Below are positions 9,494 to 10,892 of a stretch of 30,513 nt of DNA, piece by piece. The DNA lies in the NCBI GenBank assembly GCA_048939995.1, contig JBHLOY010000019.1, positions 1-30,513 on the forward strand, written 5' to 3'. The stretch comes from Promethearchaeota archaeon (GTDB lineage: Archaea > Asgardarchaeota > Lokiarchaeia > Sigyniarchaeales > SOKP01). Position 1 is the first letter of the stretch; every line of letters begins with the position of its first letter. Under the pieces are notes generated by a model. The model made no database searches, was not told where the DNA came from, and saw nothing but the letters and a program-made list of their open reading frames with translations. The translations under genes were made by a program, and so were the position numbers.

Positions 9494-9949
9494 TTAACAA
9501 TAACTTAAATAAGGTTTCACTTTTTTTTTCCCTTTTGGATCTAAAACTGCTTCCAAAATTCTTTTGGCTAACTCCTTCTTCTTCTTATAATAGATTTGCA
9601 TTCTCTCTTCCTTGGATTTATCAGGATATCTTACTTTTAAAGCAGGATCTCTCCTTTCACAGCCTCCTCTCCGCATGCAACAATAAGATAGCGATCCAAA
9701 ACATACCAAATTAGAATCCCAATTGTTTTCTTTTGAAAAATTTTCTTTTATATTGATAAATTCTTGTGAGGACATCCCTATTTCTTGAAGGATTTTATCT
9801 CTTTTACACTTGAATTCAAATGTTAATGAATGTCCTGGTTTGCAACAAAAAGTTAATCCTCGGTAATCTGCTCCCATACATATATGAATAGGAGCATTCT
9901 TTTCCCAGCCTGGAATGTCTCTAAGTTTTTCGGAATCTAATTTCCCCAT
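9494..9949 (-). CDS. Methanogenesis marker 9 domain-like Cys-rich protein
   Basis: W..APIHICMGADYRGLTFCC and CFGSLSYCC...C..RD.AL...KKELAKRIL match the recalled consensus (APSHxCRGGDxRGLAFCC / TCFGSLxWCC...CxxRD). Confidence 0.8.
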   Translation of the reverse strand: MGKLDSEKLRDIPGWEKNAPIHICMGADYRGLTFCCKPGHSLTFEFKCKRDKILQEIGMSSQEFINIKENFSKENNWDSNLVCFGSLSYCCMRRGGCERRDPALKVRYPDKSKEERMQIYYKKKKELAKRILEAVLDPKGKKKVKPYLSYC

Positions 9950-10090
9950 AATTTAGATAAAAAATGATCGATTATAATAGAAAATAATTAAAGAGTTTTT
10001 AATCTTCCATTTTATAATTATTTACAAAAATTTAATAAAGAAAATCTTCATAAAACTAAGAAGGGCTCGGTGGGGGAATCGAACCCCCGT

Positions 10091-10121
10091 TTCCTCGAAA
10101 GGAGAGAAAGTCTCTCAATCT
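10091..10121 (-). other. tRNA intron 3 (variable loop, 45/46), 31 nt
   Basis: Central helix CCTT/GAGG, bulges AG|A and AA|A, inner helix GA/TC plus a GAGAGA/TCTCTC hairpin. Excision leaves a 4-nt variable loop AGAC. Confidence 0.8.
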
Positions 10122-10134
10122 CTAAGGATTCACA

Positions 10135-10165
10135 CTAGGGAGTCTAGAGATCTTTTTCAAGATTT
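10135..10165 (-). other. tRNA intron 2 (anticodon loop, 32/33), 31 nt
   Basis: Central helix GGGG/CCCT, bulges AC|A and AG|T, inner helix AATCT/AGACT (one mismatch). Confidence 0.8.
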
Positions 10166-10182
10166 GTCCCCAATACTAACCA

Positions 10183-10212
10183 TTTTATAAATTTTCTGAA
10201 CTAGAAAATTTA
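10183..10212 (-). other. tRNA intron 1 (D-loop, 15/16), 30 nt
   Basis: Central helix GTAT/ATAA (one G.A mismatch), bulges AG|T and AA|T, inner helix AAATTTTCT/AGAAAATTT. Confidence 0.8.
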
Positions 10213-10252
10213 CTATACAAACCGAGCCATGGAATTTAAATAATATTTCAAT

Positions 10253-10267
10253 AGTATTAATTTTTCT
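10253..10267 (-). promoter_or_regulatory. Candidate BRE/TATA promoter of tRNA-His
   Basis: On the minus strand, AGAAAAA-TTAATACT has its TATA-like element ~25-32 nt upstream of G-1. The AT-rich background limits specificity. Confidence 0.35.
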
Positions 10268-10307
10268 TTCTAAAAAAAATTTAGTTTTTACCTATCCTTG
10301 CCATTCT

Positions 10308-10892
10308 TTAGATTTTAATATGTTTATGATTTTTTATTACACTCATTATGTAATTTATAAATTTTTCAATGGCATCATTAAGCTGTCCTGTGTTATTTAT
10401 AGAATAATCTGCTTCAGGATAATGTTGATTATTTTTTGCTCTTTCAATCCTTTCATTCAGTCTTTTTCCACTCTCTCTAGCTCGTTCTCTTAGGCGTTTT
10501 AATGTGATTTCAAATGGAACTTCTATAAATATAACTTTAATGTTTTCATATATTTCTCTTGTTTTAGGAACTATTTTCCTACTAACATTAATCGCTACAG
10601 GATGACCCTTTCTTAGTAAATCATCAATTTCAATAGGAACTCCATAATCTAATCCATATATATGCCACTCAATAGCAAATTTTCCTTCTTGGGATAAAAA
10701 TTTAAATTCCTCAGGTGAAACTGAAATATTATTTTCTGTTTCTGAGGGTGGGCGTGTTATATATCTCTTGGGAGCATATAATCTTTTAATTTGAGAGGGG
10801 TAACTTTCAAGAGCTCCTTGTATAATGGAATCTTTGCCAGAACCAGAATTACCGACTACTAAGAATAGAGTACCTTTATACTTTTTTATCAT
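10308..10892 (-). CDS. phnN: Ribose 1,5-bisphosphate phosphokinase PhnN-like (guanylate-kinase fold)
   Basis: Motifs VVGNSGSGKDS, RYITRP, FAIEWHIYGLDYGVP, INVSR and RLRERARES are PhnN-type rather than Gmk-type. Confidence 0.8.
   Translation of the reverse strand: MIKKYKGTLFLVVGNSGSGKDSIIQGALESYPSQIKRLYAPKRYITRPPSETENNISVSPEEFKFLSQEGKFAIEWHIYGLDYGVPIEIDDLLRKGHPVAINVSRKIVPKTREIYENIKVIFIEVPFEITLKRLRERARESGKRLNERIERAKNNQHYPEADYSINNTGQLNDAIEKFINYIMSVIKNHKHIKI

Follow-up and report, generated by a model that had tools for sequence, protein, structure and literature searches.

A predicted triple-intron tRNA-His gene in a Loki-type Asgard archaeon, with comparative evidence that suggests exchange of intron-bearing alleles between species

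A locus on the minus strand of the window (the whole 30,513-nt stretch of DNA analyzed here) is almost certainly the real, functional tRNA-His(GUG) gene of its host, a Loki-type Asgard archaeon, and three introns of the bulge-helix-bulge (BHB) type would be removed from its transcript by EndA and RtcB. As read from its letters, the gene is a member of the archaeal class with multiple non-canonical BHB introns, as every defining feature that we tested was found. Although multi-intron tRNAs are already known in Asgard archaea, comparison with related genomes provides new evidence that suggests inter-species exchange of intron-bearing alleles.

Results

Gene structure and predicted processing

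Introns make up 92 of the 166 nt of the gene (55%), while the acceptor stem and T-arm are uninterrupted in the precursor (Table 1). When the in silico spliced sequence was run through ARAGORN, as an earlier note on this DNA had advised, it was called tRNA-His(gtg), with a 7-bp acceptor stem plus G-1:C73, a D-loop of AGTGGTTA, an anticodon loop of CT-GTG-AA and a variable loop of AGAC. The GUG anticodon with G-1 and C73, which marks tRNA-His identity, is the same in parsed relatives. The earlier note had placed the gene at 10064-10228; its structure stands and G-1 is at 10228, but position 10064 is C72, and the discriminator C73 (10063) lies one base beyond that range. That note had also described a 4-bp helix flanked by 3-nt bulges at every intron, which holds for introns 2 and 3 (4/4 pairs) but not for intron 1 (3/4, with a G10·A mismatch). 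The canonical 37/38 intron is absent, as exon 3 is continuous from 33 to 45, and a split or permuted tRNA was ruled out, as the four exons are collinear within 166 nt.

Table 1. Features of the tRNA-His locus (positions in the window)
Feature	Coordinates	Strand	Remarks
tRNA-His(GUG) gene, 166 nt, 4 exons and 3 introns	10063..10228	-	G-1 encoded, CCA not encoded
Exon 1 (G-1 to G15), 16 nt	10213..10228	-	carries T9
Intron 1, site 15/16, 30 nt (probable register)	10183..10212	-	central helix 3/4 pairs (G10·A), 9-bp intron hairpin
Alternative intron 1 register, 16/17, 28 nt	10184..10211	-	central helix 4/4 Watson-Crick; 10-nt D-loop would remain
Exon 2 (U16 to C32), 17 nt	10166..10182	-	
Intron 2, site 32/33, 31 nt	10135..10165	-	central helix GGGG/CCCT, 4/4
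Exon 3 (U33 to G45), 13 nt	10122..10134	-	anticodon GTG = 10133-10131
Intron 3, site 45/46, 31 nt	10091..10121	-	central helix CCTT/GAGG, 4/4
Exon 4 (A46 to C73), 28 nt	10063..10090	-	T-arm, 3′ acceptor strand, discriminator C73
Candidate archaeal promoter	10255..10266	-	A-rich stretch then TTAATA, start 32 nt upstream of G-1; proposed from position and consensus
Methanogenesis-marker-9-like domain protein (below curated cut-off), downstream neighbor	9494..9949	-	syntenic locus marker across the family
PhnN-like ribose 1,5-bisphosphokinase, upstream neighbor	10308..10892	-	syntenic marker

In the processing that we infer, which comprises transcription, cleavage and ligation of the precursor, each intron would form a hairpin, and its 3′ end would pair with the four exon bases immediately preceding the 5′ bulge. 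The exon bases concerned are 10-13, 27-30, and 40-43, and three non-overlapping relaxed BHB motifs would result. Since these motifs use separate exon bases, they could form together and may need no fixed order. EndA would cut after the second base of each bulge and RtcB would join the exons, yielding a 74-nt tRNA with the encoded G-1:C73, to which CCA would be added after ligation. We propose cleavage, ligation, and CCA addition because established archaeal tRNA splicing works in this way.

A bacterial promoter and terminator scan, which is not suited to archaea, returned hits at chance level only. Scanning the window for BHB introns that would repair protein-coding genes yielded only chance joins of adjoining ORFs, none of them convincing. 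In three other genomes (L184 in G053, L196 in G057, and L274 in G068), a 30-31-nt insert breaks the RNA polymerase A′ gene rpoA1 at one shared codon, following the sequence for CMGHFGH, and introduces stops or a frameshift. By inspection, these inserts have a hairpin and a 4/4 BHB central helix (GGGC/GTCT, GGAC/GTCT, GGGC/GCCT) and resemble introns of the EndA type, here within an essential mRNA.

Host genome and splicing machinery

The host genome is 98% complete with 5% contamination. Its closest EndA relatives are mostly from Promethearchaeota MAGs, identifying the host as a Loki-type Asgard archaeon, in agreement with the earlier note; 16S rRNA was not found in the assembly, and the taxonomy rests on these EndA relatives. 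The genome encodes two EndA paralogues. The best structural-database match of the alpha paralogue is the Aeropyrum pernix alpha subunit (E 5e-37), whose (alpha-beta)2 structure is known (PDB 3P1Z, 3AJV; PMC3241643). The host protein keeps the catalytic residues Y142, H150, and K181 as well as loop residues K59/R61, which align with K44/R46; K44 of the A. pernix enzyme is required for non-canonical substrates (PMC3241643). The second paralogue lacks the catalytic histidine. Judged from sequence, the host EndA is predicted to be of the (alpha-beta)2 type, with the Crenarchaea-specific loop and broad specificity. The genome thus appears to supply the broad-specificity endonuclease that the earlier note had said such introns need, namely a two-subunit EndA with a K59/R61 loop. 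RtcB is also encoded. A search of the genome for Thg1 found none, which fits the encoded G-1.

Using our own motif-aware parser, we recovered 31 tRNA genes well above background, of which 25 contain an intron, nine contain at least two, and one is His. This census is incomplete, as several isotypes were not recovered and a second His gene with acceptor- or T-stem introns could be hidden. Thus, to the question raised earlier of whether this is the only tRNA-His of the genome, the answer within this incomplete census is that a single His gene was found. Its exon fragments are unique in the genome, and another locus that ARAGORN calls "His" proved to be Val(GAC) with a D-loop intron.

We also looked for relatives of the three introns within the genome. 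The best partner among the other tRNA introns of the incomplete census was 58% identical, no fuzzy copies with up to 5 mismatches were found elsewhere in the genome, and no upstream partial tRNA-His repeat was found in it. Among the other tRNA genes of the host (G000), a tRNA-Ile with a UAU anticodon (C23:115833-116011, minus strand, outside the window) is a second triple-intron gene, with introns of 25, 47, and about 33 nt. The T-loop introns of tRNA-Lys(UUU) (C19:7060-7164) and tRNA-Thr(CGU) (C19:8350-8481), which lie 1.2 kb apart, share their 3′ halves almost exactly and are 74% identical overall, a likeness that may reflect local copying between tRNA types.

Detection by standard tools and strength of the parse

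The expectation that standard finders would miss the gene proved correct. ARAGORN reported 0 genes in the raw DNA, Rfam matched only 18 nt of the T-arm, to tmRNA, and an RF00005 search gave no match on the contig carrying the gene. With the -i option, ARAGORN miscalled the locus as Leu(cag). To gauge the spliced call, we enumerated all relaxed-BHB splicings and then applied ARAGORN as a filter, which accepted 67,541 of 331,691 alternatives (20%) and was useless as a test. As a fifth of arbitrary splicings also pass, the ARAGORN call is weak evidence for our parse. When the intron letters were shuffled, with the intron boundaries taken as given, the observed motif was recreated in 0.037%, 1.4%, and 0.11% of shuffles for introns 1, 2, and 3.

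Since ARAGORN accepts many arbitrary splicings of a sequence with a perfect acceptor stem and T-arm, we considered whether our parse could have arisen by chance or from an assembly artefact. Assemblies from two other studies argue against an artefact: one (run X3) extends across the whole gene and has no listed differences within it, and the other (X6) covers 10080-10600 with no listed differences in the gene. No joint skipping an intron was seen among the DNA contigs aligned to the locus. A chance parse is countered by orthologues in which each intron is missing at its exact boundaries (described below). Together, the intronless orthologues, the independent assemblies, and the exact boundaries of intron absence led us to reject this explanation, which is barely credible.

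A mangrove-metagenome contig (run X6, record 15) aligns to window positions 10166-10230, a stretch of 65 nt that includes exon 1, intron 1, and exon 2, and shows 8 differences from it. Thus, a relative carrying a homologue of intron 1 is present in that metagenome.

Comparative evidence within the genus

The comparison covered 32 genomes of the host's genus, which yielded 33 His genes; almost all of these genes are flanked by PhnN (upstream) and the marker-9-like gene (downstream). In G053 and G055, the His gene at this syntenic locus is intronless and identical to the predicted spliced product at 73 of 74 positions, which fixes the junctions. These orthologues bear out the three non-canonical BHB-type introns proposed in the earlier note at 15/16, 32/33, and 45/46 and, together with the ARAGORN call and the G-1/C73/GUG combination, its identification of the locus as tRNA-His. 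The sole exon difference is T9 in the host, as C9 is present in its six closest same-allele relatives and in G053 and G055. For every intron of the host gene, there are relatives that lack it precisely at its boundaries, and exactly this set of three introns recurs in G056 and G057.

The survey of intron positions in relatives that had been suggested revealed five reused sites: 15/16 (in 8 of the 33 genes), 22/23 (10), 32/33 (23), 45/46 (22), and the T-loop (7). Four genes have no introns, four have one, ten have two, fourteen have three, and one has four. The rarity first attributed to triple-intron tRNAs was therefore overstated, as 15 of these 33 genes contain three or more introns and multi-intron tRNAs have been published for Asgard archaea.

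Pairing in the central helix is kept at each of the three host sites. Counted descriptively, with no probability attached because kin are not independent, pairs are intact in 88 of 88 cells at 45/46 (where position 42 is C:G in 15, U:A in 4, and U:G in 3), in 87 of 92 at 32/33, and in 28 of 32 at 15/16, with every miss at G10. This pairing persists while the intron bodies have diverged to about 30-50% identity. Compared with the same introns in the host's own clade, intron 2 is 65-81% identical and intron 3 is 84-94% identical; both appear to have been inherited within this clade.

These data also bear on whether the locus could be a pseudogene or integration scar, that is, a dead tRNA copy whose insertions are not removed by splicing. 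In favor of this, G002 and G074 have partial duplicates of the His gene at this locus (see below). However, the exons of the host gene differ from the intronless orthologues by one base, every stem closes, no other His gene was found, and the pairing between intron ends and exons is both conserved and covarying. We consider a dead copy very improbable and retain the interpretation that the gene is functional.

Other features of the His genes varied among relatives. One MAG (G046, with 7% contamination) contains two His genes, one with three introns and one with none (C48:29123 and C79:33181), which may reflect contamination. In L261 (G141), L262 (G125), L207 (G060), and L269 (G014), the His intron is located within the anticodon loop or immediately after it (about 35/36 to 37/38), so the family also uses near-canonical sites. 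The locus is also a hot spot for extra genes (L277 in G019, L278 in G004, L279 in G016, L280 in G046, L281 in G024, and L282 in G008), which encode an LVIVD-repeat protein, a serine dehydratase-like protein, an LRR protein, and unknown ORFs. In G008, tRNA-His is inverted relative to PhnN.

Register of intron 1

Intron 1 can be drawn in two registers, and we favor with good confidence a cut at 15/16 that removes 30 nt. The D-loop is 8 nt in 60 of 60 His genes without this intron and 10 nt in none of them, and the G10·A mismatch that the 15/16 register entails is also found in G008, whose intron cannot form the 16/17 register; both observations favor 15/16.

Cleavage at 16/17 (28 nt), or a mixture of the two, would instead leave a mature tRNA with a 10-nt D-loop, 2 nt longer than its intronless orthologues, as expected of intron sliding by re-registration. 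Its central helix is full and Watson-Crick, with three G·U outer pairs in addition, and it is the register chosen by our motif-aware parser. The 16/17 fold is 1.1 kcal/mol more stable than the 15/16 fold, all four pairs form in 6 of 6 members of this intron family compared to 2 of 6 for 15/16, and D-loops of 9-10 nt are found in other tRNAs of the genome. However, in addition to the uniform 8-nt D-loops, several congeners have 15/16 introns that cannot adopt this register (one of them with the same G10·A), and the intron bases that would be retained vary among homologues. Cleavage at 16/17 thus seems unlikely, and we use the 15/16 register below. In the isolated intron 1 region, neither BHB fold has minimum energy, as both registers are near +1 kcal/mol compared to -7.9 kcal/mol for a plain hairpin. 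The two registers offer a clean in vitro test of whether an Asgard EndA chooses a perfect or a mismatched central helix.

Origin of intron 1

Unlike introns 2 and 3, intron 1 is absent from the host's own clade, and it is at most 45% identical to the 15/16 introns of congeners. Its closest relatives, at 67-77% identity, are the 15/16 introns of five genomes from another genus (g12), while its maximum identity to 133 introns from other sites is 58%. Comparison of its hairpin with those of the g12 homologues revealed a compensatory U:A to C:G change. The neighboring T9 allele is common in g12. RpoA1 rejects a grouping of the host with g12 (p-AU 7e-41).

Clearer conflicts occur at this locus in two other genomes. 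Both RpoA1 and the flanking genes make G010 the sister of the host, yet the His exons of G010 are identical to those of G007 and differ from the host's at 10 of 74 positions. G057 and G056 have His genes that are 93% identical and share the same intron 2 sequence, but the proteins encoded on either side are 69% identical. RpoA1 and flank data reject the groupings implied by both His alleles. For these tests, the groups were named after the trees had been seen, the trees were quick and based on single genes, and genomes without a recovered His gene were left out; chimeric MAGs could also underlie such conflicts. Nevertheless, the disagreement between His alleles and the RpoA1 and flank trees, together with the restriction of the intron 1 homologues (77%) to another genus, points to inter-species exchange of alleles. 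We lean towards the view that intron 1, probably with T9, arrived by recombination with an allele of another lineage.

A functional link between T9 and intron 1 was considered and rejected. Within the genus, T9 accompanies the intron in 4 of 8 genes compared to 0 of 25 (Fisher p 0.002), but the association dissolves in g12, where T9 is common without the intron. T9 may be a co-transferred marker.

Alternatively, intron 1 could be old: the common ancestor of the host's clade and g12 would have had it, repeated losses would have followed, and the host's lineage would not have gained it laterally. The RpoA1 tree places g12 close to the host's clade, within a group that it does not resolve; intron 2 retains 61-68% identity over similar distances, which brings 77% for intron 1 within vertical reach, and full intron loss is frequent (4 of 33 genes are intronless). 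Such a history would require at least three losses (in G053/G055, the G045 group, and G019), and it sits poorly with a T9 that is shared with g12 alleles but absent from the host's clade and with the lateral swaps evident at this locus in G010 and G057. We regard an old intron 1 as plausible but somewhat doubtful, and recombination with a foreign allele as the better reading.

Two genomes contain partial duplications of the His gene. In G002, a 5′ tRNA-His fragment (L275:2278-2345) lies 2.1 kb upstream of the intact gene (4352 onward), and in G074, such a fragment (L276:1966-2030) lies 2.8 kb upstream of the intact gene (4757 onward). In both, the fragment and the intact gene bracket one long ORF (582 aa; up to 845 aa). 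The G002 fragment carries a 15/16 intron that the intact gene lacks. No integrase was identified at these duplicated loci, as the inserted ORFs had no Pfam match.

Discussion

The host gene resembles the multi-intron tRNAs of other Asgard archaea. Introns interrupt 92-95% of tRNA genes in three Asgard genomes, over half of them with several (Valentin-Alvarado 2024, PMC11291895), and a census of 90 Asgard genomes found up to 5 introns per gene and reported that D-arm introns are systematically missed (Goswami 2026, bioRxiv 10.64898/2026.10.13.758758). As in Atabeyarchaeia and Freyarchaeia (PMC11291895; Goswami 2026), we found that a gene can hold several short non-canonical introns with BHB-compatible boundaries, that annotation tools overlook those in the D-arm, that introns have come and gone repeatedly at a small number of reused positions, that EndA has two paralogues, and that there is little copying between tRNA types. 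Our host differs in belonging to a Promethearchaeota (Loki) genus outside the three focal families of Goswami 2026, the main text of which mentions neither Lokiarchaeia nor tRNA-His. The earlier note had also suggested that the gene bears on the evolution of EndA/TSEN specificity. One more triple-intron gene says little on this subject, as EndA features are not associated with intron burden within families (Goswami 2026).

Triple-intron tRNAs were first described in Thermoproteales (reviewed in PMC4033280), with which our host shares up to three non-canonical introns per gene (Sugahara 2008; Fujishima 2010; PMC4033280) and a predicted (alpha-beta)2 EndA with the Crenarchaea-specific loop. In Thermoproteales, a single genome holds similar introns in several tRNA types. 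The host's His introns instead have their relatives in orthologous genes of other species, at the matching site, and identity within the genome is at most 58%. Transposition between tRNA types of the Thermoproteales kind was therefore rejected for the His introns, for which 58% is the best partner in an incomplete census. A parallel to the proposed arrival of intron 1 is tRNA-Thr(GGU) of Caldiarchaeum, for which gain through recombination of an incoming intron-bearing segment was proposed and which also has an upstream 5′ tRNA fragment, as in G002 and G074 (Sugahara 2012, PMC3293823). The Caldiarchaeum case concerns one population and a putative recombinase, whereas the swaps described here appear to reach across species and genera, and comparison of the inserted ORFs with Pfam gave no integrase hit.

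These comparisons raise a broader possibility, to which we give an even chance, that Lokiarchaeia gain and lose tRNA introns mainly by inter-species exchange of whole or part orthologous tRNA genes, with the conserved exons as anchors. The host gene would then be a mosaic, with a 5′ part (T9 and intron 1) from a g12-like lineage and the rest native. The routes examined by Goswami 2026 were intragenomic copying, mobile elements, and reverse transcription; inter-species exchange of orthologous alleles was not among them.

Annotation of this locus brings back an essential gene that is overlooked or misidentified by standard tools, and shows that tRNA genes are heavily interrupted in this Loki genus too (an intron is present in 25 of the 31 that were parsed). 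With about 75 genes across the family, five reused sites, zero to four introns per gene, and alleles at odds with the species tree, the His locus offers a compact system in which to study how introns arrive. If inter-species exchange is general, it would answer what Goswami 2026 calls the central open problem, by providing a route of intron arrival that their census left open.
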